Part shown: one piece after another, positions 10,138 to 44,277 of the stretch
How the letters are laid out: each line of letters begins with the position of its first letter
Numbering within the stretch: the first letter of the stretch is position 1
Source of the DNA: a virus
Taxonomy: Duplodnaviria; Caudoviricetes
Virus record (IMG/VR): IMGVR_UViG_3300033076_000517
Coordinates: 1-44,277 of that record
DNA: 44,277 nt
Direction: 5' to 3' (one strand)
Program-made: the position numbers and the translations under genes
Notes under the pieces: model-generated
Databases searched by the model: none
What the model saw: the letters and a program-made list of their open reading frames with translations, nothing else
Told to the model about the DNA's origin: nothing

Positions 10138-13100
10138 ATGGCCGACTACGAAGACCAGATCGCGGCGTTCCGCACACAGAGCGCTGCTCCCGAGGGCGAC
10201 ACCTACGAGGATCAGATCGGGTCATTCCGTCGCCAGCAATCCGAGGAGATGGGCCGCCTGCGCGCGAGCGCATCACTGGCCGCTGAGACCACGCCCGAGC
10301 GCGTGGCGCAGCAGCGCCGCCTGTCGTTGAGCACGGGCCTGCCGATGGAGGTGGTCAAGACCGCCGAGGGCGAGGCCAAGGCCATTGCCAAGTACAACGA
10401 GCTGGCAAAGCTGTCGCAGACCTCGCCGGTGCTGCGCGCCAAGCTGCAGAACCCCGAGTTCACGGCGCTGGCCCAAAACGATGGCGAGGCGCTGTCGGGC
10501 ATCGAGAAGACGATGAAGGTCATCGGCGGCACCGCAGGGCGCGTGCTGGCCGGTGGCACGGTCGAAGTGGGCGCAACGCTCATGGACTTCTCGGGCTTCG
10601 TCAACGACATGATCTCGCAGGCGGCCAAGGCCGGTGCGCCGGTGGTTGAAGGCATCCTGCCGATTAACCCCCTGGGCCAGATCGCGGAGGCAGCCGCCGG
10701 TGGCGCGGCCAAGAACCGTCAGCAGGCCAAAGACGCGCGTGCGTCCATCGACTACTTCCTGCCCGAAGCCACCAACAGCACCGAGGCGGGCCTGTACTCC
10801 GGCGCGCAGTCGGCGGGCTTTAACCTCGCCACGCTGCCCGCTGCCATCGAGGCGGCCATCGTCAAAGGCCCGCAGGCTGCGGGCCAAGTGATGGGCGCCA
10901 TCGCCGCGCTTGCCACCGGCTCGCGCTCGTACAACGAGGCGCGCGACAAGGGGCTCGACCCGATGGGCTCGATCACCTACGCCGCACCGGCAGCTGCTGC
11001 CGAGTACCTGTTCGAGAAGTGGGCGGGCGGCAAGTTCTTTGACGACGTGGCCGCGCGCTCGCCGGTCATGAAGATGCTGCTCAACAACGCCACGCGCGAA
11101 GTGTTTGGCGAATGGGGCACCACGCTCACGCAGAACTTCAACGAGTGGGTGCGCCTGAACCCTGAGAAGACCGTGCGCGAGTTCATCAGTGAGCAGCCCG
11201 AAGCGCTGTATCAGACGATGATCGCAGCGCTGGTGGGCTCCGGCATCCAGACCGGCGCGATGAAGGGCATCCAGAAGCTCGCCGACCGGCAGAACCAGAG
11301 CCTCGTCAACATCGACGAGATCACCAAGCTGCAGGACATGATGCGCATCGCCGCAGGCTCCGACCTGTTGGCGAAAGACCCGCAGACGTTCAAAGACTAT
11401 GTGCAGGCCGTGGCCGATGGCACCGAGGGTGCGCCCAAGTCGGTGTGGGTCGATGGCCGCGTGCTGCAAGAGTCGCTCGCCCAGTCGGGCGTGACACCTG
11501 AGCAACTCGCCACGATCCTGCCCAGCGTGCAGAGCCAGCTCGCCGAAGGGGTGAGCATGAACACCCCGGTGGAAATCCCCGTGGGCGAGCTCGCCACGGC
11601 AGCAGGCACCGAGATCGAGAAGGCGCTGATGCCGCACCTGCGCACGAGCGCCGATGGCCTGAGCCTGACCGAAGCACAGCAAGAGCAAGAGCAGGCGCAG
11701 CAGTACCTGCAGCAAGAGGCCCAGCGCATCATCGGCCAAGCCGCCGATCAGGTGCAGGCCAACGCGCAAGCGGAGAACGTGCGCCAGATCATCGCCGAGC
11801 AGCTCTTCGCCACGGGCCGCTATTCCAAAGACGTGGCCGACAAGGGTGCCAAGCTCGTGGGCGACTTCTACACGGTGATGGCCCAGCGCACGGGCATGAC
11901 GCCTGACGCCCTGTACCGCGAGGTGATCGACTACAAGGTGCGAGCACAGGGGCAGGGCGCGTTGACGCAGATCACGCCCGAGCAGGCAATGGCAACCAAC
12001 GTCAAGATGGAGATGCCTACCGACCCGACGTTTGCCGAGGCGGTTGGTAACACGCCCGGCGCGCAGATCACCGAGCGAGGCTTACTTATTGACTTGGTGC
12101 GCTACCAAAAACCCGAGCAGGAGGGCGCGCAAGCCATCCGTACCGGAGTGTTCTACTTGCCCAACGGCGCGGCAACTGCCAAACACTACAAGGGCGGCAA
12201 GGGTGGCTATGGTGGCGCGCAAGCCTTCACTGGCGAAACCCTGATCCGGCGTCCGTTGTTCGTAAAAGGCGCAACCGGCGGCAAGGCCCCCGAGGTTGCC
12301 TACGACCAGCTCAAGGGTAAGAAAGCCTACAACAACATGCGCGAGGACGTGCTGAAGGTTGCCGTAGGGTGGGGTAAAACAGAGCAGCAAAAGGTTGACG
12401 GGGTGCGCGAAGTGCTGACCAAGTACAACGCTGACCCTAGCCTTGCTGCCGAGATCGTGCGCAACAGCCGCGAAGGCAACCAACTGCCATACGCAGTGCA
12501 GGAGAACATTGTTGCTCACGCTGTGCGCGAGGCTGGGTATGACGCTGTAGTCGGCTACAGCAAGGGTAAATCCGGCGCGAACATCTCCGAGGTGTTTGAC
12601 GTGCGCGAGCAGTCCTTCCCTGCGCGCGGCATGGAGTCAGAGGTGCACAGCGTCTTCGACCAAGCCGCCAACGGCACCACGGCCTACGCTGCCGACACGA
12701 TCACCATCGACGGCAAAGAGCGCCCAGCGCTCAACAGCAACGGCCAGCGCATCGCCGCCACCGAAGAGGGGTTGCGCAACTTCTGGGCGTGGTTCGGCGA
12801 CAGCAAGGTGGTCGATGCCGATGGCAAGCCGCTGGTGGTTTATCACGGCACTGACACGGGCGGGTTCACCTCGTTCTACGAGACGGGCGGCGAAGTGCGT
12901 GGCGACCTCGGCATCTTTGCCACGTCCAACCGCGAGATGGCAAAGACCTACGTCAAGCGCGGTCGCGCCCAAGACCTGACAGCAGAGCAGCTGGGCGAGG
13001 ACATGCCGCAAGTCAGTGGCCTGTACCCGGTCTACATGAAGATCGAGAACCCGCACGAAGCCTTCTTTGAGGGTGCGCACTGGCAGGGCGAGCGCCCCGG

Positions 13101-16100
13101 CAAGTACCAAGTCGAGAACGCTGACGGCGAAGTGATCTACACGGAGGAAGGCAAAGCCTACTTCGACAGTCTCGTCGAGGCCGCCGACTTTGCGCTGGAG
13201 AACGGCGGCAAAATCGAACCCGCCGCAGACCACTTTGAAACCACCGACGGCGTGGTGCGCGAGGCCCGCCGGTACGGCAACGACGGCGCGATCATTCACG
13301 ACGTGGTGGACGACGGAGGCGGGGCCAGTGCCTACATCGCCGAGCCCTCGATGGTGTACGTCACTTTTGACCCCACGCACGTCAAAAGCGCCACCGGCAA
13401 CAACGGCCAGTTCAACCCGCGAGACGCCAACGTCCTGCACCAGACCCCGGCCTCGATCCCTGCGTGGGCGCGCGAGAAGTCGGGCACCCGGATCACCGAC
13501 AAGGTGAAGGGGATGTCTATCGCGTTGGCCCCAAAGGCTGCGCTGGCCGAGCGCAACTACGCCAAGCTCGACGAGATTTTCAAGGCCGTGCCCGATCCGC
13601 TGGCGAGCGAGAAGGACTGGCGCAAGTTCATGTCGCTGCTCACCGGCGATTCGAGCGTCGTGGGCGTGCCCTACCGTGCCTTCGAGTACGCGCGCAACCC
13701 GCAGGTGCTTGCCGACTACCTGAAGCGCATGCGCCCCGACCAGCTCGAGTCGCGTCGTCGTGGCTTCGCGCTGGGCGCTGCCATCCGCGAGCAGTACACC
13801 AACGGCACGGCCACGCCGCAGACCACTGGGCGCTTGCTGCTGTGGGCGATGCTCTCGCGCAAGGCCGGTGCTTACCCGCACGAGTCGGCCTATATGGACT
13901 TGGTCAACGGTGGCGTCGACCAGTGGATCGACAAGGCCGTGCGCGGAGACTGGACAGAGCAGGACGGCGAAGCCTACGCGCGCTGGTCTGCCGACTACAT
14001 GGCAACCAAGAAGGGCGGCGTCAGCCCTGGTGCTGGTGTGACCTCGAACGCCAACGACTTTGGCCGCATCCTGCTCGCCAAGATGTCGGCCAAGGGCGAG
14101 GACGGGCGCACGCTGCTCACGCAGCTGCACGACATGATGGCCGACCCCAACGTGTCCACCGACCAAATCCGTCGCGCCTTCTTTGGACTGGGCGATGGCC
14201 TTGGCATCCAGAACAAGGTGCTCTCGTTTGCCATGCTGGTGACGGGGCGCTGGGACACCCTGGTGCTCGACCGTGTGCAGTTCACGCACCTGTGGGGCGA
14301 TGAGTACAAAAAGCGCGCCGGTCAGAACAACATCTACGACGGCAACGGCGGGGGCCTGCAGCCCATCGGCGACGGCCACTTCGGCATCGCCGTCTACGAG
14401 GCGCTGGATCGCGGTTTGCGCGAATCGGTGGCGCAAGCCTACAAGCTCGCCGGGCTGGAAGGCCAAGGCGATGGCACACTGGGTGCGTTCCACTGGGATT
14501 CGTGGCTGGTAGAATCCAGTCAGGCCATCGCACACCCCACGGTCGAGGCGATCCCTGAAGGTGGCACACCGCGCCCTGACTTGGCCGTCAAGCAGGGCAA
14601 GTTCGACACCTACTCGCACGGCTTTGAGTACCGTGCCGATGGTCAGTACCAGATTCCGCTGCTCTCTGGCGCGGGCTACCGCATCCTGTCTCCGGCAGAG
14701 GCAGCAGAATTTGCAAACCGGCTGAAAGAGCCGAAAGAAGGGGTTGTCCCAAATGGATTCAAGGTCTCCGAACACAAAGAACACCCGTGGACAGAAGCCG
14801 ACGGCGTCGACCGAGAGCGCTACGACGCAGTCCTCGCCGAGTACGGTCGACCAGCTGATGCAGCAGATGTCGCTGCAGCCGGGCTTGCCGATGCAAGCGG
14901 ATCAGTTCAAGGCAGTACCGCCAGCGGCCTCAACAGAGACCGAGCAGGACGGTATGCGCGCGGAGGCCTTGCGCCGCTTGCAGGTGCGCCGTCTGTTGCC
15001 GGAGCAGCCGGGCCTGACCCTCGCCTCGTTGCCGTCGCCGAGCGCTACGCCCGTGAAAACGGTATCGACCTCAAGCGCCAAGCCGAATACGTCCAAGTAG
15101 ACCCCGCGCGTGCTGAACGTATCGCGGCGGCCTACGCCGCGATGGAGCACGCCCCGCAGAACCCCCAGGTTCGTGCCGCCTACCAGAACCTGATCGAGCA
15201 GACGCTGGCGCAGTACCGTGCGCTGGAGGCTGCCGGTTATCGCTTCTATCTGGTCGACGAGACCAACGACCCCTACGGCGGCAACCCGTGGAACGCCATG
15301 CGCGATCTGCGGGCCAATCAGGTCATGGGCGTCTTCGCCACCGAGGCGGGCTTCGGTAGCGGGGCCACCGACCTGAACGTCGAGGACAACCCGCTGCTGG
15401 CCGACACCGGCCTGCGCTGGCCTTACGGTTCGCTCGATGGGCAGCCCAAGCGTGTGCTCGCCAACGACCTCTTCCGTGCCGTGCATGACGCCTTCGGCCA
15501 CGGGCTGGAGGGCGCAGGCTTCCGCGCAGAGGGCGAAGAGAACGCATGGCAGGCCCATGTGCGCCTGTTCACCGGCTCGGCTGTGGCGGCTATCACCAGC
15601 GAGACGCGCGGCCAGAACAGCTGGCTGAACTACGGCCCTTACGGCGAGAGCAACCGCGCAGCCAAGGTCGAGGACACGGTCTTCGCTGACCAGAAGACGG
15701 GCCTGATGCCTGAGTGGACGTGGACAGAGGGCCGGGTGGCCGACATGCCCGAGCAGCCGGTGCAGCAGCCCGACACCCTCGCCCAGAGCGAGGTGCCCAA
15801 CAAGTACCAAACGGCCTACCTCGCAGGGCGCGACATCTCGCAGCTCACCGACGAAGAGCTCGGCCAGTACCAAGCGCTCTCCGACAACGCGCAGCCGCTT
15901 GAGCAGCCCGCAGGCAAGGGCCCGCGCGGCACCTACGACATCGCCAGCATGACCACCGTGTTGAACGGCACGGCTGACCTGTCGACCTTCCTGCACGAGA
16001 CCGGCCACTTCTTCCTCGACGCCATCCGGCGCATGGTGCTCTCGGGCAACGCCACGCCCGAGGTGCAGGCCATGTACGAGCAGGCGCTCAAGGGCTTGAA

Positions 16101-19100
16101 CGTCACGCCGCAGCAGTGGGAGCAGTGGCACGAGGAATACGCGACCACCGGCAAGATCAGCGACGGCATGCGCGCAGCCCACGAGCGCTGGGCCGAGAGC
16201 TTTGAGCTCTACCTCTTCAGCGGCCAGTCGCCCAACCCCGGCACGCAGTCACTGTTCCGCACCTTCGCCGAATGGCTCAAGCGCGTCTACACCTCGATGC
16301 AGCAGTTCGCCACGTCCAAGGGCTTGACGATGGACGCCGATCTGAAGGCGGTCATGGACAAGATGCTGGCGACCGACGAGCAGATCGCCGAGGCTGAAGC
16401 CATCGCTGGCCTGCTGCCCGATCTGGACGCCACGGGCGAGGCGCGCGAGAAGTTGAACGCCCGCAGCATGCGCGACCTGCAATGGGCGCGCAATGCGGTG
16501 AACAAGTACATCGCCAAGCTGCAGAAGGAGGCGCGCGGCCTGCGCGCTGAGATCGAAGAAGAGGTGCGCGCCGAGCTCGCCAAGCAGCCGGTGTTCGCCG
16601 CGCTGCGCTTCATCAAGAAGGGCGAAGCCACGGTGGACGGTGAGGAGATCAAGGCCACCACCGGCCACAAGATCAACACCGACGCGCTCAAGGAGATGTA
16701 CCCCGAGACCATGCTGGCTCGCCCTGACCTCACCAAGCTCAAGGGCCTGACCAACAAGGAGGGGCTGCACCCCGACGTGCTGGCCGACAGCTTCGGCTTC
16801 CCCTCCGGCGATGCGCTCATCCGCGCGCTGATCGAGGCCAACCTTGAAGCCGAGGTCGAGGGCATGACCGACCAGCGCATGCTGGAGCGCCACGGCGATC
16901 TGGCAACGCCCGAGGCCATCGCCGCTGCGGCGGTGGAGGCCGTCCACAACGAGGCCCGCGCCAAGTCGCTGGCAACGGAGCTGGCCGCCCAGCGCGAGAT
17001 GCTGGGCACACGGCGCGACACCGGCGAGCAAACCGCCAACGGTGCCAAGCGCACGGTCAACGTGCTGGTGGAGGCTGCCAAGGCCTTCGCGCAGAACGTC
17101 ATCGGCCGACGCGCCGTGAAGGGCTTGAAGAAGGCTGCATGGGCGCACCTGCAGGCCGAGCGCCGTGCGGGCAAGGCGTGGGAGGCGGCCACGGCTGCCG
17201 GTGACACGCAGGCTGCCGTGCAGGCCAAGCAAGACCAGATGCTCAACAACGCCGCCGTGCGTGCAGCTCAAGAGGCGCAGGCCGACGTGCGCGCCGCGCT
17301 CGACCTGTTCAAGAAGATCACCAAGGGCAACAACGAGGCGCTGGTCAAGCGCGGCTTCGACCCCGATGTGGTCAACGCTGCGCGCGCGATCCTGGCCGCC
17401 TACGGCGTGACCGGCCCGCAGAGCAAGAGCGCGCTGGAATACCTGGAGCTGGTGCAAAAGAACGACCCGGCCATGTACGCCGCGATCCAGCCCTCGGTGG
17501 TGGCTGCGCTCACCAACGCCAAGCCCTTCGACGAACTGACGGTGGCCGAGGTCGGGGCGCTCAAGGACGAGATCGAGAGCCTGTGGCACCTTGCCAAGCG
17601 CTCGCGCCAGATGGAAGTCGACGGCAACCTGCTCGACCGCGAGGAGGTGCAGGACGACCTGCGCGCCGATCTGGAGGCCCGAGGCATCCCAGATGCCATG
17701 CCGGGTGACACCAGCGCCATCACGCCCCAGGAGCAGGCGCTGCGCAAGCTCATGGTCTTCCGCGCTGCGGCCACGCGCGTGGAGAACTGGGCGCAAAACA
17801 TGGGGGCGAACTTCACCAAGTTCGTCTTCCAGCCCATCAAGGAAGCCGCCGACCACTGCCGCGCGGCCAAGGCCGAGAAGGTCAAGGCCCTGCACGCTCT
17901 GCTCAAGCCCATCGAAGGCTCGCTCAAGAAGGGCGAGATCAAGGCCGACGAGTTGAACGGCTACGTCTTCGGCAAGGACACCAGCGGCGTGGGCATGGCC
18001 GAGGTGCTGCACGCGCTCATCCACACCGGCAACGACAGCAACAAGCGCAAGCTGCTGCTGGGCCGTGGCTGGGCCAGCGAGAACGAAGACGGGACGCTCA
18101 ACACCTCCAAGTGGGACGCCTTCATCGAGCGCATGGTGCAAGAGGGCAAGCTCACGCAGGCCCACTACGACTTCGCCCAGGGCGTGTGGGACTTGTTCGA
18201 GTCCACCAAGCCGCTGGCGCAGAAGACCCACCGCGATGTCTTCGGGCGCTACTTCGCCGAGGTCACAGCCAACAGCTTCGTTGACCCCTTCGGCATCACG
18301 CGCCGTGGCGGCTACGCACCTGCCATCACCGACACGCGCATCGTCTCGGATGCGGCCACGCGCTCGCTGATGGAAACCGAGAACCAGTCGATGGCCTACG
18401 CCTTCCCCTCGACCTCCAAGGGCTTCACCGTGGGCCGGGTCGAGTACAACAAGCCGCTGCTGCTTGACCTGCGCGTGCTCGCCCAGCATCTGGACAAGGT
18501 GCTGCTCTTCTCCTACATGGAGTCCCCGGTGCGCGATGTGCGCCGTGTGCTCTCGGCCAAGAACGTGAGCTACGGGTTGAACCGCATCGACCCGGTGGCC
18601 TTCGACAACGTCATCACGCCCTGGTTGAACCGCGCCGCGCGCCAGCAGGTCGAGGCACCCATCGCAGGCGATGCCGGTCTCATGCGCATCTTCAGCGCAG
18701 CGCGCAACCGCGCCGGTATGGCTGCGATGTTCGCCAACGTCGCCAACGCCGCGCAGCAGCTCACCGGCTTCGCCATCGCTGCGGTGAAGGTCAAGCCGAC
18801 CTACCTGATGAGCGCAGCCGCGCAGATGATCGCCGCGCCGAAGCAGATGATCGCCGACGTGAGCGCCGCCTCGGTCTACATGCGCGAGCGCATGGAGAAC
18901 GACGTCGCCAACGCCGAGAGCGCGATCCGCGACATCCTGCTGGATGCCAGCGTCTACGAGAAGGCGCAGCAGTGGAGCGCCAAGCACGCCTACTTCCTGC
19001 AGTCGGCAGTGGACAACGCGATGGGGCCAGTGATCTGGACGGGCGCCTTCAACCAAGCCACCGAGCAGGGGCTCTCGCAGAAGGACGCTGTGCGCTTTGC

Positions 19101-19794
19101 CGACAGCGTGATCCGCACCACGCAAGGCAGCACGTTGCCCGAGGATGTCAGCCGCATCGAGACGGGCAACGCCTTCGTGCGCATGTTCACCCAGTTCGGC
19201 GGCTACTTCAACATGCAGGCCAACCTGCTGGGCACCGAGTTCGCCAAGGTCGCGCGCGAGCTGGGCGTTAAGCAAGGCGCTGGCAAGATGCTCTACATCA
19301 CGTTGCTGGGCTTCTTGGCTCCGGCGTGGGTGGGCGAGGCCATCATGCAGGTGTTCCGTGGCGGGCCGGACGACGAGGACAAGGACGGCGAGTACCTCGA
19401 CGACTGGCTGGCCGCGATCTTCGGCTGGTCGACCCTGCGAGGCGTGACGGCCATGATCCCAGGCGTGGGCCAGACGATCAACGCAGGGGTGAACGCCTGG
19501 AACTCCAAGCCCTACGACGACCGCATGGGCAGCGCCCCTGCGATCTCGACGGTGGAGGCAGCCGTGCGCTCGCCCGCTTCGGTCTACAAGGCCGTTGTGG
19601 AGGATGGCAGCAGGCAAAAGGCCGTGCGCGATGTGGCAAGCCTCATCAGCGTGAGCACCGGCCTGCCTGCCACCGCTGTCGCCCGCCCGCTGGGTTATCT
19701 GGCTGGCATGTCCGACTCCAGCATCAACCCCACCAGCGGGGGCGACATGGCGCGCGGGCTTGCCACGGGCTACGCGAGCCCTGAAAGCAAGTGA
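10138..19794 (+). CDS. Giant ejection (gp16-position) large polyvalent protein with ART-like, HhH-GPD glycosylase-like and zincin metallopeptidase modules
   Basis: 3218 aa. WFGDSKVVDADGKPLVVYHGT (ART-PolyVal-like); GIQNKVLS..G..D..LDR; NDLFRAVHDAFGH; ADLSTFLHETGHFFL (HExxH). Confidence 0.85.
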   Translation: MADYEDQIAAFRTQSAAPEGDTYEDQIGSFRRQQSEEMGRLRASASLAAETTPERVAQQRRLSLSTGLPMEVVKTAEGEAKAIAKYNELAKLSQTSPVLRAKLQNPEFTALAQNDGEALSGIEKTMKVIGGTAGRVLAGGTVEVGATLMDFSGFVNDMISQAAKAGAPVVEGILPINPLGQIAEAAAGGAAKNRQQAKDARASIDYFLPEATNSTEAGLYSGAQSAGFNLATLPAAIEAAIVKGPQAAGQVMGAIAALATGSRSYNEARDKGLDPMGSITYAAPAAAAEYLFEKWAGGKFFDDVAARSPVMKMLLNNATREVFGEWGTTLTQNFNEWVRLNPEKTVREFISEQPEALYQTMIAALVGSGIQTGAMKGIQKLADRQNQSLVNIDEITKLQDMMRIAAGSDLLAKDPQTFKDYVQAVADGTEGAPKSVWVDGRVLQESLAQSGVTPEQLATILPSVQSQLAEGVSMNTPVEIPVGELATAAGTEIEKALMPHLRTSADGLSLTEAQQEQEQAQQYLQQEAQRIIGQAADQVQANAQAENVRQIIAEQLFATGRYSKDVADKGAKLVGDFYTVMAQRTGMTPDALYREVIDYKVRAQGQGALTQITPEQAMATNVKMEMPTDPTFAEAVGNTPGAQITERGLLIDLVRYQKPEQEGAQAIRTGVFYLPNGAATAKHYKGGKGGYGGAQAFTGETLIRRPLFVKGATGGKAPEVAYDQLKGKKAYNNMREDVLKVAVGWGKTEQQKVDGVREVLTKYNADPSLAAEIVRNSREGNQLPYAVQENIVAHAVREAGYDAVVGYSKGKSGANISEVFDVREQSFPARGMESEVHSVFDQAANGTTAYAADTITIDGKERPALNSNGQRIAATEEGLRNFWAWFGDSKVVDADGKPLVVYHGTDTGGFTSFYETGGEVRGDLGIFATSNREMAKTYVKRGRAQDLTAEQLGEDMPQVSGLYPVYMKIENPHEAFFEGAHWQGERPGKYQVENADGEVIYTEEGKAYFDSLVEAADFALENGGKIEPAADHFETTDGVVREARRYGNDGAIIHDVVDDGGGASAYIAEPSMVYVTFDPTHVKSATGNNGQFNPRDANVLHQTPASIPAWAREKSGTRITDKVKGMSIALAPKAALAERNYAKLDEIFKAVPDPLASEKDWRKFMSLLTGDSSVVGVPYRAFEYARNPQVLADYLKRMRPDQLESRRRGFALGAAIREQYTNGTATPQTTGRLLLWAMLSRKAGAYPHESAYMDLVNGGVDQWIDKAVRGDWTEQDGEAYARWSADYMATKKGGVSPGAGVTSNANDFGRILLAKMSAKGEDGRTLLTQLHDMMADPNVSTDQIRRAFFGLGDGLGIQNKVLSFAMLVTGRWDTLVLDRVQFTHLWGDEYKKRAGQNNIYDGNGGGLQPIGDGHFGIAVYEALDRGLRESVAQAYKLAGLEGQGDGTLGAFHWDSWLVESSQAIAHPTVEAIPEGGTPRPDLAVKQGKFDTYSHGFEYRADGQYQIPLLSGAGYRILSPAEAAEFANRLKEPKEGVVPNGFKVSEHKEHPWTEADGVDRERYDAVLAEYGRPADAADVAAAGLADASGSVQGSTASGLNRDRAGRYARGGLAPLAGAPSVAGAAGPDPRLVAVAERYARENGIDLKRQAEYVQVDPARAERIAAAYAAMEHAPQNPQVRAAYQNLIEQTLAQYRALEAAGYRFYLVDETNDPYGGNPWNAMRDLRANQVMGVFATEAGFGSGATDLNVEDNPLLADTGLRWPYGSLDGQPKRVLANDLFRAVHDAFGHGLEGAGFRAEGEENAWQAHVRLFTGSAVAAITSETRGQNSWLNYGPYGESNRAAKVEDTVFADQKTGLMPEWTWTEGRVADMPEQPVQQPDTLAQSEVPNKYQTAYLAGRDISQLTDEELGQYQALSDNAQPLEQPAGKGPRGTYDIASMTTVLNGTADLSTFLHETGHFFLDAIRRMVLSGNATPEVQAMYEQALKGLNVTPQQWEQWHEEYATTGKISDGMRAAHERWAESFELYLFSGQSPNPGTQSLFRTFAEWLKRVYTSMQQFATSKGLTMDADLKAVMDKMLATDEQIAEAEAIAGLLPDLDATGEAREKLNARSMRDLQWARNAVNKYIAKLQKEARGLRAEIEEEVRAELAKQPVFAALRFIKKGEATVDGEEIKATTGHKINTDALKEMYPETMLARPDLTKLKGLTNKEGLHPDVLADSFGFPSGDALIRALIEANLEAEVEGMTDQRMLERHGDLATPEAIAAAAVEAVHNEARAKSLATELAAQREMLGTRRDTGEQTANGAKRTVNVLVEAAKAFAQNVIGRRAVKGLKKAAWAHLQAERRAGKAWEAATAAGDTQAAVQAKQDQMLNNAAVRAAQEAQADVRAALDLFKKITKGNNEALVKRGFDPDVVNAARAILAAYGVTGPQSKSALEYLELVQKNDPAMYAAIQPSVVAALTNAKPFDELTVAEVGALKDEIESLWHLAKRSRQMEVDGNLLDREEVQDDLRADLEARGIPDAMPGDTSAITPQEQALRKLMVFRAAATRVENWAQNMGANFTKFVFQPIKEAADHCRAAKAEKVKALHALLKPIEGSLKKGEIKADELNGYVFGKDTSGVGMAEVLHALIHTGNDSNKRKLLLGRGWASENEDGTLNTSKWDAFIERMVQEGKLTQAHYDFAQGVWDLFESTKPLAQKTHRDVFGRYFAEVTANSFVDPFGITRRGGYAPAITDTRIVSDAATRSLMETENQSMAYAFPSTSKGFTVGRVEYNKPLLLDLRVLAQHLDKVLLFSYMESPVRDVRRVLSAKNVSYGLNRIDPVAFDNVITPWLNRAARQQVEAPIAGDAGLMRIFSAARNRAGMAAMFANVANAAQQLTGFAIAAVKVKPTYLMSAAAQMIAAPKQMIADVSAASVYMRERMENDVANAESAIRDILLDASVYEKAQQWSAKHAYFLQSAVDNAMGPVIWTGAFNQATEQGLSQKDAVRFADSVIRTTQGSTLPEDVSRIETGNAFVRMFTQFGGYFNMQANLLGTEFAKVARELGVKQGAGKMLYITLLGFLAPAWVGEAIMQVFRGGPDDEDKDGEYLDDWLAAIFGWSTLRGVTAMIPGVGQTINAGVNAWNSKPYDDRMGSAPAISTVEAAVRSPASVYKAVVEDGSRQKAVRDVASLISVSTGLPATAVARPLGYLAGMSDSSINPTSGGDMARGLATGYASPESK

Positions 19795-22637: not shown

Positions 22638-22807
22638 TGACCGAAACCGAAGCAAGACTGAACAGCCACGAGGCTGTGTGCGCCGAGCGCTACGACCAGA
22701 TCAACGCGCGCTTGAAGCGCTTGGAAGGCATTTTGATGAAGGCCAGCGGCGTGATGCTGGTGTCAATGGCGGGGGTGATCTACGCCTCCTTGGTTCACGC
22801 AAAGTAA
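22637..22807 (+). CDS. Small membrane protein (XhlA-like/holin-associated)
   Basis: MTETEARLNSHEAVCAERY..I..RL.RLE plus a C-terminal TM segment; TGATG coupling. Confidence 0.6.
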   Translation: MTETEARLNSHEAVCAERYDQINARLKRLEGILMKASGVMLVSMAGVIYASLVHAK

Positions 22808-22821
22808 GAAGGAAAACCACC

Positions 22822-22989
22822 ATGAAAAACTACCTCCTCCAGCGCGCCCAAGAGCCCTCCACATGGCGCGGCGTGACGCTGCTGCTCACCGCCCTGGGCG
22901 TGCCGCTGGCCCCGGCGCTGGCCGAGCAGATCGTCACCGTGGGCTTAGGCGTTGCGGGCCTGATCGGCGTGCTCTCCGCTGACCAGTGA
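22822..22989 (+). CDS. Holin
   Basis: MKNYLLQRAQEPSTWRG plus two hydrophobic segments; RBS AAGGA; precedes endolysin. Confidence 0.7.
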   Translation: MKNYLLQRAQEPSTWRGVTLLLTALGVPLAPALAEQIVTVGLGVAGLIGVLSADQ

Positions 22990-23417
22990 TGCACCTGACC
23001 CCGCACTTCACGCTCGATGAGCTCACCATCACCGAGCACCGCAAGCTCGACAACACGCCCGATGCGCTCTCCCTTGAGAACTTGAAGCGGCTGGCCGACT
23101 TCTTGGAGCAGGTCAAGGCGGTGCTGGGCGGCAAGCCTGTGCTGGTCAATTCGGCCTACCGCAGCCCGGCGGTGAACGCAGCCGTGGGCAGCAAGCCCAC
23201 CAGCCAGCACACCATCGGCTGCGCGGCAGACATCCGGGTGCCGGGCATGAGCCCTGATGAGGTCGTGCGCAAGGTGATCGCCAGTGGCATCGGCTACGAC
23301 CAAGTGATCCGCGAGTTCGACCGCTGGACGCACCTGAGCATCCCCAACACGGTGGCCGACTACCCGCGCCGTCAGGCGCTCATCATCGACCGAAACGGGA
23401 CGCGAGCCTTCGCCTGA
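22986..23417 (+). CDS. Endolysin, peptidase M15A family
   Basis: LTPHFTLDEL...SAYRSPAVNAAVG...SQHTIGCAADI...WTHLS zinc-peptidase motifs. Confidence 0.88.
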   Translation: MMHLTPHFTLDELTITEHRKLDNTPDALSLENLKRLADFLEQVKAVLGGKPVLVNSAYRSPAVNAAVGSKPTSQHTIGCAADIRVPGMSPDEVVRKVIASGIGYDQVIREFDRWTHLSIPNTVADYPRRQALIIDRNGTRAFA

Positions 23418-23976
23418 AGGCCCACAGCGGCTTCGTGTGGGCGGGGGCAGGGGTGGCCCTTGGTGGCTCCTCCCCGAGCGCATAGGCGCGCTCGTTGGCC
23501 GCTGCGCCCCCGGCGGCGAGCTCCTCGTAGGCGGCAGCGAGCTGCGCCTTGAGCAGTTTGATCTGGCGCTGGTAGTTGGGGATCATCTGGCGCAAGTACC
23601 AGAACCCCAGCAGGTCGCCCCCGTTCAACCCGTACTTGTAGCCGGGGCCGTGCAGCCGCCCGGTCTCGCCCACCTTCCAGTCGCGCCACATCCCGCACTC
23701 GATCATGTGGTAGGTCTGACCGGCCAAGGATTCCAGCGCCACCATCATGGCTTGGCTGGGGATGACCTCCTGCTTTTTCCAGCGGTGGATGGTGACCCGC
23801 GAGACCCCGAGCGCGCGCTCGATCTGGGCCTCGCCCAGCTGCTCAATCAATTCGAGCACGCGCCACTTGGCGTGGATGTCCCGGCGCTTTTTGACGTTGT
23901 TGTCGGGGGTGGTTTTGACGTGGCTCTTTAGCATTTGCGCAGTCTGACTTAAGCAGATGGTAAACGCAACCCTCAC
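23383..23976 (-). CDS. HTH + DUF3653-like protein, putative Xer activation factor (XafT-like); start uncertain (23976 GTG or 23934 ATG)
   Basis: HTH: AQIERALGVSRVTIHRWKK. DUF3653-like: WRDWKVGETGRLHGPGYKYGLNGGDLLGFWYLRQ, then a coiled coil. Adjacent to the dif-like site. Confidence 0.65.
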   Translation of the reverse strand: MRVAFTICLSQTAQMLKSHVKTTPDNNVKKRRDIHAKWRVLELIEQLGEAQIERALGVSRVTIHRWKKQEVIPSQAMMVALESLAGQTYHMIECGMWRDWKVGETGRLHGPGYKYGLNGGDLLGFWYLRQMIPNYQRQIKLLKAQLAAAYEELAAGGAAANERAYALGEEPPRATPAPAHTKPLWAFRRRLASRFGR

Positions 23977-24100
23977 CTAACCTACTGCGCATAATGTATA
24001 TTCGGGTTTCGATTTTGCTAAAGCGCGCCCGAGGCTTGGTGGTTGCACGTTGCCTCGGGTTTCGCTCATGCTCAACTCAAGGCTTTAGCAGATTGCTACA
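23927..24100. promoter_or_regulatory. Cluster of operator-like boxes (TTTAGC-N4-GCTAAA family) flanking attP
   Basis: 23927 TTTAGCATTTGCGCAG; 23949 TTAAGCAGATGGTAAA; 24007 half site ending GCTAAA; 24084 TTTAGCAGATTGCTACA. Confidence 0.55.
23984..24011 (+). other. dif-like attP site (XerC arm and central hexamer intact, XerD arm degenerate)
   Basis: ACTGCGCATAA-TGTATA-TTCGGGTTTCG vs E. coli dif GGTGCGCATAA-TGTATA-TTATGTTAAAT: 17 contiguous identical nt; arms 9/11 and 4/11. Confidence 0.75.
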
Positions 24101-24296
24101 GCCCGCGCATGTTGTCAAGCAGCCTGCGCATGTGGTCAAGCAGCTTCCCGGTGATGGGCCTGCTCTCGGGCGGCAATGCTTCAAGCCGCTCGAGCAGCTC
24201 GTCCCACGCGCGGGCCTTGGCTTCCATCAGGATGTAGTCGTCGACCGCCTTCTGGATCGGGTCGGCGTAGCACACGGTGAAGGCGGGCGGGTTCAT
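24096..24296 (-). CDS. Hypothetical protein
   Basis: ATGA-coupled to the upstream gene; last gene of the - strand operon before attP. Confidence 0.6.
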   Translation of the reverse strand: MNPPAFTVCYADPIQKAVDDYILMEAKARAWDELLERLEALPPESRPITGKLLDHMRRLLDNMRGL

Positions 24297-24568
24297 CGCT
24301 CGACCCCTTCAAGCCGGTCGGCCACGAGCTTCGCGTAGCCCGCAATGTCCACCCAGCTGTCGGCGTAGTTCGGGTCGCCGTTGATGATGCGTCCCAGCTT
24401 GTGGGCGATCATCTCCAAGCACTCCTTCTGGTCATCCGCAAGGCGATCCCACTTCTCCCCCATCTTTGCGCGAAATACCGCCTTCAGGGTCTGGGTCACC
24501 TCTGCGTGCCCGGTGAACTTCCCGTATCGGCTGCCGCGCTCGGTGAGGGTCTCGATGATGTCGGTCAT
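24293..24568 (-). CDS. DUF6378-like conserved phage protein
   Basis: TLTERGSRYGKF...KLGRIINGDPNYADSWVDIAGYAKLV. Confidence 0.7.
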   Translation of the reverse strand: MTDIIETLTERGSRYGKFTGHAEVTQTLKAVFRAKMGEKWDRLADDQKECLEMIAHKLGRIINGDPNYADSWVDIAGYAKLVADRLEGVER

Positions 24569-25953
24569 GTCTTTCCTTTCATAGCTTCCAACAAAATGTC
24601 TTGCACGCTGCGCTTGGTCTCATGCCGCAGGATGACCTGCTCGTCCACGGTGCCCTTGGCAACGATGTAGTGGATGAACACCGGGCGATTATTACCGGCC
24701 TGCATCTGGCGCACGGGCCCGATGCGCTCGACCATCTGGTCGTGATATTCCAGCGCCCACCAGTGCGAGAAGAACGCGATCACGTTGGTCACATTCTGCA
24801 GGCCATCAACGCCGTGGCCGAGGCTTTGCGGGTGCGCGATCCCCAGCGGTGACTTGCCCGCCCGGAACTTTGCCATGCCCTCCACGGTGGCGAGGTCGAC
24901 CGCCTTGGGGAACGCCTTGAGGATGCGCTCGCGGTCACTGATGAAGTGATACGCGCACAGCACCGGCACGTCGGACTCCTCGACGATCTCTTCGAGCGCC
25001 TGCAGCTTCTCGTCGTGAACCTTCGCCCAGCTGTCGTCCTTGGGGTCAGGGCTGGTGTAGACCGCACCGCTCGCCAGCTGCAGCAGCTTCTGGCTCTTCG
25101 AGGCCGCGCTCACGGCTTCGATCTGGTGGTCGCCGATCTCGGTGTAGAAGTCTTTTTGCATCTCCTTGTACTTCGCCATCACCGCCTTGGGCAGCGTCAC
25201 CTGCACCTTGTTGATGACGGGCTTCTCAAGGTCGAACCAGTCGGCGGGGTCGAGCGTCAGGCAGATGTCGGCGAGGCGCTCCTGTATCTGGGCCTGCGCG
25301 AAGGGCAGGGCCACCGTCTGGGTGTAGTTGCCATCGCCCGGCATGGCTTGAAACCAGCGATCCATGAAGGCGGTGTAAGTGCGCCCGAGGCGCTTGCCCT
25401 CATCCAAGAACCACGTCTGCCCCCAGAGGTCTTGCAGGCCATTGGAGGCCGGTGTGCCGGTGAGGTTGACCCAGCGGCGCACCTTCGTGTGCGCAACACG
25501 GGCCAGCGCCTGCGCGCGGATGCCGCCTTGCCGGAGCCTAAAGCTCTTGAGCTTGGTGGACTCGTCGGCGATCACGTTGCGAAAGGGCCAGCGCTCGCCC
25601 AGCTCCTCCACCAGCCACGGCACCTGCTCGTAGTTGATCGAGTAGACATGCGACTTGCGCCGCAGCGCGGCCTTGCGCTGGGCCAGATCGCCGACGATGG
25701 GCACCACGTCGAAGCCTTCGAGGTGCGTCCACTTGGTGGGCTCCTCCGGCCATGTGTCGCGGGCCACGCGCAGGGGTGCGAGCACCAGCGTGGGGTCGGA
25801 CTCGCCGACCACGTTGTAGAGGATGTCCAGCACGTTCAGGCTGGTCACCGTCTTGCCCATCCCCATGCCCGCCCACAACGCGCAGCGCGGGTTGTTGGCG
25901 AGGTGCTGTGCCCCGATGATCTGGTAGGGGCGAGGGGTGAACGGCTTACGCAC
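24565..25953 (-). CDS. SNF2-family (SF2) helicase
   Basis: PRPYQ, GMGMGKT (Walker A), IADES, NLTGTP, HPQSLGHGVDGLQ, ERIGP.RQ; start GTG 25953. Confidence 0.9.
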   Translation of the reverse strand: MRKPFTPRPYQIIGAQHLANNPRCALWAGMGMGKTVTSLNVLDILYNVVGESDPTLVLAPLRVARDTWPEEPTKWTHLEGFDVVPIVGDLAQRKAALRRKSHVYSINYEQVPWLVEELGERWPFRNVIADESTKLKSFRLRQGGIRAQALARVAHTKVRRWVNLTGTPASNGLQDLWGQTWFLDEGKRLGRTYTAFMDRWFQAMPGDGNYTQTVALPFAQAQIQERLADICLTLDPADWFDLEKPVINKVQVTLPKAVMAKYKEMQKDFYTEIGDHQIEAVSAASKSQKLLQLASGAVYTSPDPKDDSWAKVHDEKLQALEEIVEESDVPVLCAYHFISDRERILKAFPKAVDLATVEGMAKFRAGKSPLGIAHPQSLGHGVDGLQNVTNVIAFFSHWWALEYHDQMVERIGPVRQMQAGNNRPVFIHYIVAKGTVDEQVILRHETKRSVQDILLEAMKGKT

Positions 25954-26188
25954 GGCGCTCTTTCGATGGCCTGGGGCAGTTGGGCGGCGGTACGACAACG
26001 CACCACACGGCAGAGTGCTGGCCGCGCGTGGCCTCTGTCCAGCGGTCAACGTAGGCGTCCGGCATGTCGTTGAGCGCCTTGCGGATGGTCGTGTCGCTGG
26101 CGCCCAGCACGGCGCATATCTCCATCGAGGTCATGCCGTCGTCGTTGGCGCGCAGCATGGCGCGAATTTGAGGGTGCCAGGATTTCAT
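25946..26188 (-). CDS. Small winged-HTH-like protein
   Basis: DGMTSMEICAVLGASDTTIRKAL..MPDAYVDRW; ATGA-coupled start at 26188. Confidence 0.6.
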   Translation of the reverse strand: MKSWHPQIRAMLRANDDGMTSMEICAVLGASDTTIRKALNDMPDAYVDRWTEATRGQHSAVWCVVVPPPNCPRPSKERRA

Positions 26189-34653: not shown

Positions 34654-35067
34654 TCACTTGAGGAGTAAGACAAGCCTGCGGGCATACGTCTGTTCGGCGG
34701 CGTTGGTTTCCTGCTGGCGCTCGTACACCAAGGCGACCAGCTCCGCGAGCTTGGCTTTGCTTACCTTGACGCCCTCGGATTCCAGCAAATCCTGCACCAA
34801 AGCCATTACTTCGATCAGGGCGTTCGTATCTGGTTGACCCGGCAAGCCTTTGTGGGGCTTGTCCATCCAGCCTGACGACAAGCCCAGCTTACGCTCCACG
34901 TCACGCGCCGTCTTCTCGCTGACCTCGCGCGTCGGCTTGGGGCCAGCGAGCTGGGCCATGTAGCTGGCGTTGGAGTGCCCGAGCTTCAGGGAAAGACTGG
35001 TAGGCCCGCCCCACTGCTCCATGAGCTTGCGCAGGTTGTCCCTGCGGATGTCGAAGACTGACTTCAT
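34654..35067 (-). CDS. CI-like repressor (HTH, no S24 peptidase domain)
   Basis: IRRDNLRKLM...SLSLKLG..ASYMAQL....REVSEKTARDVERKLGLSSGWMD; divergent from the cro-like gene. Confidence 0.8.
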   Translation of the reverse strand: MKSVFDIRRDNLRKLMEQWGGPTSLSLKLGHSNASYMAQLAGPKPTREVSEKTARDVERKLGLSSGWMDKPHKGLPGQPDTNALIEVMALVQDLLESEGVKVSKAKLAELVALVYERQQETNAAEQTYARRLVLLLK

Positions 35068-35068
35068 C

Positions 35069-35136
35069 CTTAGCACATTGCCACAGCCAAGTGTTGTTTT
35101 CAAGCAATAGCTAATGCCTTTACAAAATGCTAAAGT
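35069..35136. promoter_or_regulatory. Immunity switch region with three operator-like boxes and a rightward extended -10 (TGCTAAAGT)
   Basis: 35069 CTTAGCACATTGCCACA; 35100 TCAAGCAATAGCTAAT; 35119 TTTACAAAATGCTAAA. Confidence 0.6.
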
Positions 35137-35168
35137 CGGCGCTCCCCGTATTTTTAGGAGCATTACCT

Positions 35169-35501
35169 GTGACCATGTCCACCATGAAGGCTTGGATGCA
35201 AGCCGCCGATCCACTGCAGCAGTTCGAGCTTGCCAAGCGCGCGGAGACCTCGCGCCAGTACCTGTACCACCTGTCCGGGGGCTTTCGCGATGCCTCCCCG
35301 GCACTGGCCCAGCGCATCGAGCGCGCCTCGCTTGCCATGCACAAGGAGACCAAGGGCAAGCTGCCCAAGGTGTACCGCACCGATCTGAACAAGGACTGCC
35401 GCGAGTGCGAGTTCGCAGCCAAGTGCCTGGGCGCTGCAGCCGTGGCCTCGGACTTCGCCTTCCTGCCCGCTGACGACAGCGAGGGAGGTCTCAATGATTG
35501 A
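35169..35501 (+). CDS. Cro-like HTH regulator with C-terminal CxxC..C
   Basis: ELAKRAETSRQYLYHLSGGFRDASPALAQRIE; RBS AGGAG; start 35169 GTG or 35175 ATG. Confidence 0.7.
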   Translation: MTMSTMKAWMQAADPLQQFELAKRAETSRQYLYHLSGGFRDASPALAQRIERASLAMHKETKGKLPKVYRTDLNKDCRECEFAAKCLGAAAVASDFAFLPADDSEGGLND

Positions 35502-43512: not shown

Positions 43513-43823
43513 TGGTCAGTCTGAAACTTTCCCCCGTCGAAGCCGCAGAAGCCACCGCGCTCACCGCCGAGCCCGACAAGCCCAACTACGGCTACGGCAC
43601 TTGCGTGCAGCTCAACGACGAGCAGGTCGAGGCGCTGGGCATCGCCAAGCTGCCCGTGGGCACCAAGGTCAAGATCGTCGCCTTCGGCGTGATCGACTCG
43701 ACCCGCATTGAAGTGGGCGAGGAGGGCGAAGCGCCCTACATGAGCATCCAGCTCACCGACATGGAAGTTGGTGGCGCCTCCAGCGTCAACGCCTCGGCCA
43801 TGTACCCCAGTTCCAACGGCTAA
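43512..43823 (+). CDS. Capsid staple-like protein
   Basis: YGYGTCVQLNDEQVEALGI.KLPVG...SIQLTDM; follows portal. Confidence 0.6.
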   Translation: MVSLKLSPVEAAEATALTAEPDKPNYGYGTCVQLNDEQVEALGIAKLPVGTKVKIVAFGVIDSTRIEVGEEGEAPYMSIQLTDMEVGGASSVNASAMYPSSNG

Positions 43824-43833
43824 GGAGTAGACC

Positions 43834-44112
43834 ATGCCATTGTCCAAAGACGTTTACGTCACATCCAACGACTTCTCGCCCATCGTCTCGATCAAGGCCG
43901 TGACGCCCAACGACGCCTCCGATCTGCCCGATGGTGCTTGCCGCGCCTTGCTCATCACAGGCGCTGGCAATTTGCGCATCACCACCGCAGGCGGCGACAC
44001 CGTCACGCTGCCAATCTCGGCCAACTGGTTCGGTGTGACCTACATCCGTGCGGCCCGCATCCACGCCACCGGCACCACGGTGAGCGCGGCCAACATCTTC
44101 GCCTGCTACTGA
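43834..44112 (+). CDS. Head spike base protein (Rcc01079-like), paralog A1
   Basis: Same length as, and highly similar to, 715-993. Confidence 0.7.
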   Translation: MPLSKDVYVTSNDFSPIVSIKAVTPNDASDLPDGACRALLITGAGNLRITTAGGDTVTLPISANWFGVTYIRAARIHATGTTVSAANIFACY

Positions 44113-44134
44113 TTCAAACCCCAAGGAGCACACC

Positions 44135-44277
44135 ATGCCCAACCAACTCTTCGACCAGAAGTTCTATTCCAAGGACAACCAGCAGCACTCCGAGCTGCAA
44201 GGCGTGGCGGTCACCCCCGCCGATGGCACTGACCTGCCCAACGGCGTGTGCGAGGCCATCTACGTCACCGGCGCTGG
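44135..44277 (+). CDS. Head spike base protein paralog B1 (3' truncated)
   Basis: MPNQLFDQKFYSKDNQQHSELQGVAVTPADGTDLP..., paralog of 1015-1311. Confidence 0.7.
   Translation, partial: MPNQLFDQKFYSKDNQQHSELQGVAVTPADGTDLPNGVCEAIYVTGA

Follow-up and report, generated by a model that had tools for sequence, protein, structure and literature searches.

The closest described counterpart of the locus analysed here is the TLC-phi satellite of Vibrio, a small rolling-circle element. Its double-stranded DNA attP has an intact XerC arm and centre and a degenerate XerD arm in which T1 and G5 are kept; it has no integrase, and carries the gene for XafT (VC1465), a protein with a helix-turn-helix (HTH) and a DUF3653 domain (PMC6744903, PMC9226527). 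XafT is active on XerCD, and the direction of the reversible Xaf reaction is described as unsettled (PMC6744903). According to PMC9226527, XafT accepts nearly every arm in which position 1 or position 5 is retained, G5 being critical, and FtsK needs the inner five bases of the XerD arm. Xaf-like genes also lie beside the attP of double-jelly-roll phages, CTX-I inoviruses and VGJ-phi (PMC12715192, 10.64898/2026.06.12.731946). For the dif-type double-jelly-roll phages (P15/P16) and the CTX-I inoviruses, Int-type and dif-type variants are reported to differ only in the lysogeny module, i.e., swaps between the two types, with XafT/P15, are known for tailless phages (PMC12715192). XafV of VGJ-phi is reported to aid only XerC-initiated reactions, not XerD-initiated ones (10.64898/2026.06.12.731946), and PSB15, a DUF3653 protein of Xanthomonas inoviruses, is reported to be a packaging factor dispensable for integration (10.1101/2024.03.19.585677). 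Gokushoviruses at dif have been reported as well. In the published texts consulted, Xaf-type activation of XerCD is shown solely for a Vibrio satellite and filamentous phage, and is proposed for tailless phages. Among tailed phages, Legionella LME-1, which is short-tailed, integrates at dif through a recombinase of its host, after which one of the two sites is intact and the other altered (PMC9765430, PMC12407071).

The locus lies in a stretch of 44,277 nucleotides of tailed-phage DNA (IMG/VR record IMGVR_UViG_3300033076_000517), hereafter the window. It shares with TLC-phi the type of attP, the kept T1 and G5, the neighbouring HTH and DUF3653-type gene and the lack of an integrase. It differs from TLC-phi in being part of a 44-kb tailed phage with a polymerase, a CI/Cro-like switch and operator-like motifs at the site, and from XafT in that its protein falls below the cut-off of the XafT family, an XafT-like activity being predicted. 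In LME-1, XerL is the single recombinase and the att, of 22 bp, is identical to dif, with no activator named in the description of PMC9765430, whereas the window phage has an XerC/XerD-type site and a Xaf-like gene. The double-jelly-roll phages, CTX-I inoviruses and VGJ-phi, in contrast, are non-tailed Vibrio phages, and the XerC-first reactions aided by XafV take place on a single-stranded DNA attP (PMC12715192, 10.64898/2026.06.12.731946). A first-pass annotation had implied that a dif-integrating tailed phage would be novel. This was overstated, because LME-1 is a published podophage at dif that uses the host XerL (PMC9765430, PMC12407071). The literature searched, mainly open-access main texts, contained no report of a tailed phage with an XerCD-type attP together with a Xaf-like gene; what is new here, as far as sequence can tell, is a TLC-type XerCD module under a putative phage switch. 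Our main reading, to which we assign a probability of about 0.7, is that this BPP-1-like podovirus lysogenises via the host XerCD at the chromosomal dif, the site and the XafT-related gene replacing an integrase.

The integrase slot, the dif-like site and the Xaf-like gene

The virion and replication genes of the window are BPP-1-like. That is, the portal, terminase, capsid, tail-tube and replication genes follow the order of Bordetella phage BPP-1 (Rauchvirus), with identities of 53% for the portal, 59% for the terminase, 56% for the polymerase and 55% for the helicase, and the phage encodes its own DNA polymerase, primase and helicase. The gene for a virion (ejection-type) protein of 3218 aa (10138-19794) is longer than its BPP-1 counterpart. 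The two phages differ in one slot, where BPP-1 has an excisionase, a tyrosine integrase and a tRNA-His attP (helicase-xis-int-attP-lysin) and the window has the order helicase-site-xaf-lysin. The module therefore sits, by synteny, where an integrase and attP had been expected. On one side the slot is bordered by the endolysin gene (peptidase M15; 22986..23417, plus strand), which ends the late operon and is convergent with the Xaf-like gene, and on the other by the end of the early leftward block, with the helicase, a DUF6378 gene and a 66-aa ORF (24096..26049, minus strand).

Domain searches of the window turned up neither a recombinase (tyrosine integrase, resolvase or large serine recombinase) nor ParA or ParB, in keeping with the absence of integrase and partition genes noted at first pass. 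The lack of an own integrase or recombinase, with about 2% of the genome unassembled, is as in integrative elements of the TLC type; by CheckV, the window is 98% complete, as a linear contig. The gap lies in the head operon. A pair of small virion genes (PHROG 12296) is present there twice, at 43809-44277 and 690-1160, with 85% identity, and the two copies flank a LamG-domain gene and the gap; a relative, G001, has a single copy of the pair. G001 covers the interval of the gap and has no integrase there. Another relative (G003:C267) is closed, with 44,140 nt and a 141-nt terminal repeat; it is syntenic, with CI/Cro and xaf, and it too has no integrase. This closed relative carries the weakest site, and the metagenome-assembled genome that holds it contains neither a second copy of the site nor a match to a XerD arm.

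The dif-like site, the predicted attP, spans 23984..24011 (plus strand), is present in a single copy in the window, and is conserved in relatives. It reads ACTGCGCATAA TGTATA TTCGGGTTTCG, with the XerC arm at 23984-23994, the centre at 23995-24000 and the degenerate XerD arm at 24001-24011. Compared with the dif of E. coli K12 (sequence from Table 1 of PMC2731167), 9/11 positions of the XerC arm, 6/6 of the centre and 4/11 of the XerD arm agree, and the XerD arm keeps T1 and G5. The longest exact run common to both is 17 nt, as first noted, against a maximum of 12 nt in 200 order-2 Markov simulations of the window. The site thus has the TLC-type form of a dif-like dsDNA attP, with an intact XerC arm and centre and a non-canonical XerD arm. 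It lies upstream of the Xaf-like gene, 49 nt from the ATG, with the XerC arm toward the gene. A blastn search of the site as a 46-nt query, too short for the purpose, gave no match in E. coli genomes. Contigs of four sequencing runs over 22800-24800 are uninterrupted across the site wherever coverage exists, and no host junction was seen among the loose contig ends listed, the contigs telling of presence only. In run X1, a relative's contig of low depth has two different letters at window positions 23999-24000, within the central hexamer; this would fit a host whose dif centre is another one, or an error.

The Xaf-like gene (23383..23934, minus strand) encodes 183 aa. The ORF itself extends over 23383-23976; the ATG at 23934 is preferred as the start, because five homologues have it in common and the spacing is the same in relatives. 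The 3' end overlaps the endolysin gene. Neither a sigma-70 promoter nor a terminator was found for the gene, and an antisense ORF at 23437-23931, without a Pfam match, was rejected. The predicted layout comprises an XRE-type HTH at about residues 14-70, a divergent DUF3653 domain at 72-133, a long helix at 105-141 and a poorly conserved tail.

The assignment of the protein is transitive. In Pfam, all HTH matches of the window protein were sub-threshold, and PF12375 (DUF3653; cut-off 22.4 bits) gave no direct match at E<=0.5. A profile built from six close sequences recovered 115 proteins among 1.84 billion. The PF12375 cut-off is passed by the proteins of loci L088, L243 and L237, and by 33 of the 94 proteins scanned, these being the 6 close and 88 of 114 distant sequences (the other 26, mostly HTH-repeat proteins, were left out). 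A profile of these 33 DUF3653 domains matches residues 72-133 of the window protein with 40 bits, compared with 4.5 for the best of 200 shuffles, a match that is partly circular because the 33 proteins were recovered with this same family. The kinship of the window protein with DUF3653, as judged from these profiles, thus runs through its relatives only. The XafT family itself (NCBIfam NF040522, VC1465_fam; curated cut-off 70 bits) was not matched by the window protein; nine of ten other tailed-phage homologues match it weakly, with 22.6-48.2 bits, 7/10 chromosomal homologues tested pass the cut-off, and the protein P0006 matches the family with E 7.6e-4. The window protein is therefore best described as a divergent XafT-like protein outside the curated family. 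As for the first-pass annotation of an HTH plus DUF3653-like ORF beside the site, the gene and its adjacency stand, and kinship with DUF3653 can be traced by way of relatives, the direct DUF3653 or XafT match having failed.

The predicted structure (pLDDT 88.7) shows, besides the HTH, a small hairpin and a helix of 37 residues. Together with the transitive profile, this gives the XafT-like architecture, i.e., an N-terminal XRE-type HTH, a W-x-x-W hairpin domain and a long helix. Foldseek against the PDB matched the HTH region alone, with nothing at E<=0.001; in the ESM Atlas, DUF3653 clusters appeared at 0.91 and an XafT-named cluster at 0.81, which we take as a lead only. When the XerD of a betaproteobacterium, as a stand-in, was co-folded with two copies of Xaf (residues 10-150), the best score was 0.20, the mark being 0.32, and we count this neither for nor against an interaction. 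Searches of cultured phages and plasmids gave no homologue beyond weak HTH-level matches, and locus searches of viral contigs by protein, by close alignment, by the L088 protein or by the CI protein gave nothing. At one xaf locus (L013:3689-4602) an HNH endonuclease gene immediately precedes xaf, and a database protein (P0016) fuses HNH and DUF3653.

Distribution of the module in phages and at chromosomal dif

Helicase-anchored loci were collected from viral contigs and species genomes. The census of 164 rows, which include the window, BPP-1, duplicates and two loci from a site scan, comprises 122 loci with an integrase, 8 with xaf, 34 with neither and 0 with both; 19 of the 34 extend less than 3 kb downstream. 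Among loci with at least 3 kb downstream, the numbers are 85, 6 and 15, respectively. Thus, xaf and integrase are mutually exclusive in helicase-anchored loci. A clear dif-like site is present in 6 of the 8 xaf loci (the window, L003, L005, L006, L014 and L243), and a weak site alone in the other two (L088 and L013), so the proposed co-occurrence of a dif-like site with a DUF3653-type gene in integrase-less relatives is seen. The 17-mer of the window, with up to 3 mismatches, was found among 82 loci in the window and 3 further xaf loci and in no others. A search for the operator-plus-start pattern returned known loci only, 4 of them viral and 2 from metagenomes.

In the helicase tree (FastTree, viewed without a formal test), most xaf phages adjoin integrase-bearing sisters and do not form one clade, a scatter that is as expected from module exchange. 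The protein tree places the sequences of the BPP-like phages in one group (support 86/83, unstarred), apart from most cassette proteins (99/89). An independent viral scan for a XerC arm and centre followed by a non-canonical XerD arm returned 32 viral loci, seven of them with a xaf-like gene, of which 3 are P22-like podoviruses; one P22-like genome (G799) is complete, has no integrase, and carries the same pair of site and xaf. G at position 5 of the XerD arm occurs in 5/6 distinct arms of xaf-type phages versus 4/18 other matches (p=0.015), a comparison of small numbers and related phages. In a fragment without xaf, L225, two dif-like sites (545-572 and 1186-1213) share about 45 nt of XerC-side identity, diverge right after the centre and have cargo ORFs between them; in L243 (5235-6277), cargo lies between site and xaf. 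Both arrangements look like cassette capture at attP.

In chromosomes, homologues were matched in 24/401, 18/401 and 10/400 sampled genomes. From the first two of these searches, after exclusion of HTH-only and duplicate matches, 35 chromosomal loci were assembled. An intact dif lies within 1.5 kb of the homologue gene in 26 of the 35, the XerC arm points toward the gene in 22, and in 15 there is a second copy of the XerC arm and centre with a degenerate XerD arm. An intact dif with a degenerate partner matches the product predicted from the phage site. The chromosomal homologues belong to 1-2 kb elements or inoviruses, not to tailed prophages. In Burkholderiales and other Gammaproteobacteria, elements of about 0.8-2 kb at the chromosomal dif hold a xaf-like gene and one to three unknown ORFs, are bounded by an intact dif and a copy with a degenerate XerD arm, and have no recognised replication gene (L177, L178, L182, L183, L185, L187, L189, L191-L193, L257, L259, L260, L265, L267, L300, L302, L304); tandem arrays of them are seen in G177, G966 and L312. 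At four other loci (L254, L256, L258 and L268), xaf-like genes that form a well-supported clade on the protein tree lie between a rolling-circle-type rep gene and the element's own tyrosine integrase, with no dif nearby; DUF3653 may thus also serve non-Xer recombinases.

An integrated copy of the phage was looked for in three ways. Among 185,579 species genomes scanned by helicase, a single contig carries xaf, with attP in its free form, and no integrated copy was seen; the profile searches, on three genome samples of 400-401 each, gave small elements, inoviruses and rep-integrase elements, and no prophage of this lineage; and of the 16 places where an intact dif precedes the operator, none is of this lineage. 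The claim that the podovirus lysogenises at dif is supported in part. Synteny with BPP-1, the mutual exclusion with integrases, the conserved site in relatives, the homologues at chromosomal dif and the integrase-less closed relative speak for a predicted attP and an XafT-like gene in the integrase slot; against the claim is that no integrated prophage was found in these searches. The host, we guess from composition and relatives, is a high-GC betaproteobacterium. Two runs that contain relatives are freshwater metagenomes, and a dif of the CG(C/T)ATAAT type was found in 1/301 sampled genomes of a Comamonadaceae-type family.

These scans also turned up other tailed phages with a dif. Long-tailed proviruses without xaf (L311, L313, L317, L318, L320 and L323; G1202-G1206) lie at an intact dif, with a lysis cassette that ends about 200 nt from the XerD side and host genes or a transposase beyond; in 3/4 searched, a weak tyrosine-recombinase match lies near the far end. 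They are an unrelated tailed prophage lineage at dif. A tailed phage contig of 33.7 kb with terminase and portal (L322:4996-5023, L324) has a fully intact dif among phage genes, and neither integrase nor xaf was found in this fragment.

Operators and a proposed course of lysogeny

The CI-like repressor (137 aa; 34657..35067, minus strand; PHROG 12107, E 4.9e-15) is a candidate binder of the motif TAGCA-nn-TGCTA and is 61-72% identical in two xaf-bearing relatives. The switch region (35068..35498, plus strand) has operator-like sites at 35071, 35102 and 35121 and a divergent Cro-like gene (35175-35498). That is, the CI part of the CI/Cro-like switch noted earlier is confirmed by a family match, and the Cro part, which has none, is putative, from position and conservation.

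The motif occurs in the CI/Cro-like interval and in three early intergenic gaps. An operator matrix was trained on six TAGCA-nn-TGCTA sites away from the dif-like site, and its four best untrained matches, at 23948, 24006, 23926 and 24084, fall around that site and over the start codon of the Xaf-like gene. Two of these operator-like sites are on the gene side, one over the start codon (23926-23943) and one between site and ATG (23948-23965); the interval 23926-23965 is on the side that would remain with the gene. The other two are on the XerD side, at 24006-24023, overlapping the outer XerD arm, and at about 24083-24101. A half-site 13 nt before the ATG is kept in relatives, and in an integrase-bearing sister (L015) the motif lies upstream of the integrase. 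The CI-like protein is the putative binder of the TAGCA-nn-TGCTA operators. Binding by the HTH of Xaf itself is disfavoured, because the motif is found at the switch, at early promoters and upstream of the sister's integrase, and is nearly absent from cassette loci.

Building on what is observed, namely the dif-like site and its slot, the family of the gene, the mutual exclusion with integrases and the operator-like motifs, we infer integration, XerD activation and repression as follows. After infection, the Xaf-like protein would be expressed from the circular genome; independently of FtsK, it would activate XerD and cope with the poor XerD arm. The crossover, within the 6-bp centre, would leave one intact dif, made of the phage XerC arm and the host XerD arm, beside xaf; the other end of the prophage would have a crippled site that FtsK could not excise. 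In the lysogen, Xaf would be silenced by the phage repressor, bound to the operators that cover the xaf start and lie on either side of the site; upon induction, Xaf would return and the prophage would be excised. Control by the repressor would thus give the reaction its direction.

Alternative explanations and significance

It is unlikely, in our estimate, that the phage does without stable integration, with XerCD acting on the site of the extrachromosomal genome, where it would resolve multimers of a carrier or plasmid-like form, or with Xaf deregulating the host dif in lytic growth. All lineage genomes observed have the site in free form, the prophage searches were negative, and the phage has its own polymerase, primase and helicase. 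However, it has no ParA or ParB domains, its slot and geometry match those of integrating elements, and two sites that both lack a XerD arm would be poor partners, as the model in PMC9226527 needs one good dif; besides, the phages come from metagenomes whose hosts are presumably poorly assembled. A shade less likely again is that integration at dif occurs but the gene product is no activator of XerD and acts instead as a regulator, as a directionality factor or, like XafV, as a helper of an XerC-first reaction. A divergent, distinct subfamily below the family cut-offs would suit such a role, as would the precedent of PSB15, the restriction of XafV to XerC-initiated reactions and the presence of homologues beside rep-integrase pairs. 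Yet FtsK integrated near-dif arms only, as described in PMC9226527, and the arm in the window lacks the inner TTATG, so that a helper should be needed; the site is a dsDNA attP of the TLC type, and the protein has the full-length HTH and DUF3653 architecture of XafT.

We regard it as very improbable that site and gene are passengers, i.e., that a lytic or decaying phage has picked up a small cassette which targets dif. In favour of this are the xaf cassettes of 1-2 kb at dif that are common in Burkholderiales, a close relative (L012) with neither module, and the two att-like sites on either side of cargo in L225. Against it, the BPP-like phage proteins group apart from cassette proteins, phage operators are built around the site, with the same motif upstream of the L015 integrase, and CI/Cro is retained. 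An integrase in the unassembled gap, which would make the site irrelevant, is scarcely credible: the contig is linear and lacks about 2% by CheckV, but the gap falls within the head operon, between the duplicated virion-gene pair, and relatives that cover the interval have no integrase.

If, as we favour, the phage lysogenises through the host XerCD at dif, a tailed phage that carries both the module and its operators would answer how the reversible Xaf reaction, left unsettled in PMC6744903, gets its direction, and the divergent Xaf would be usable for mapping the XerD contact. A 44-kb payload at dif would also suggest the use of the module as a compact integration tool. We consider it more probable than not that at least two unrelated tailed lineages, BPP-1-like and P22-like, have swapped the integrase for a dif mimic and a Xer activator of their own, and that in the BPP-1-like lineage the repressor of the lysis-lysogeny switch controls both activator and attP. 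The latter would then form XerCD prophages in a regulated and reversible way, with a new subfamily of Xaf, and predictions of lifestyle that look for an integrase would miss them. Integrase-less tailed phages that lifestyle predictors label as lytic could then be temperate.
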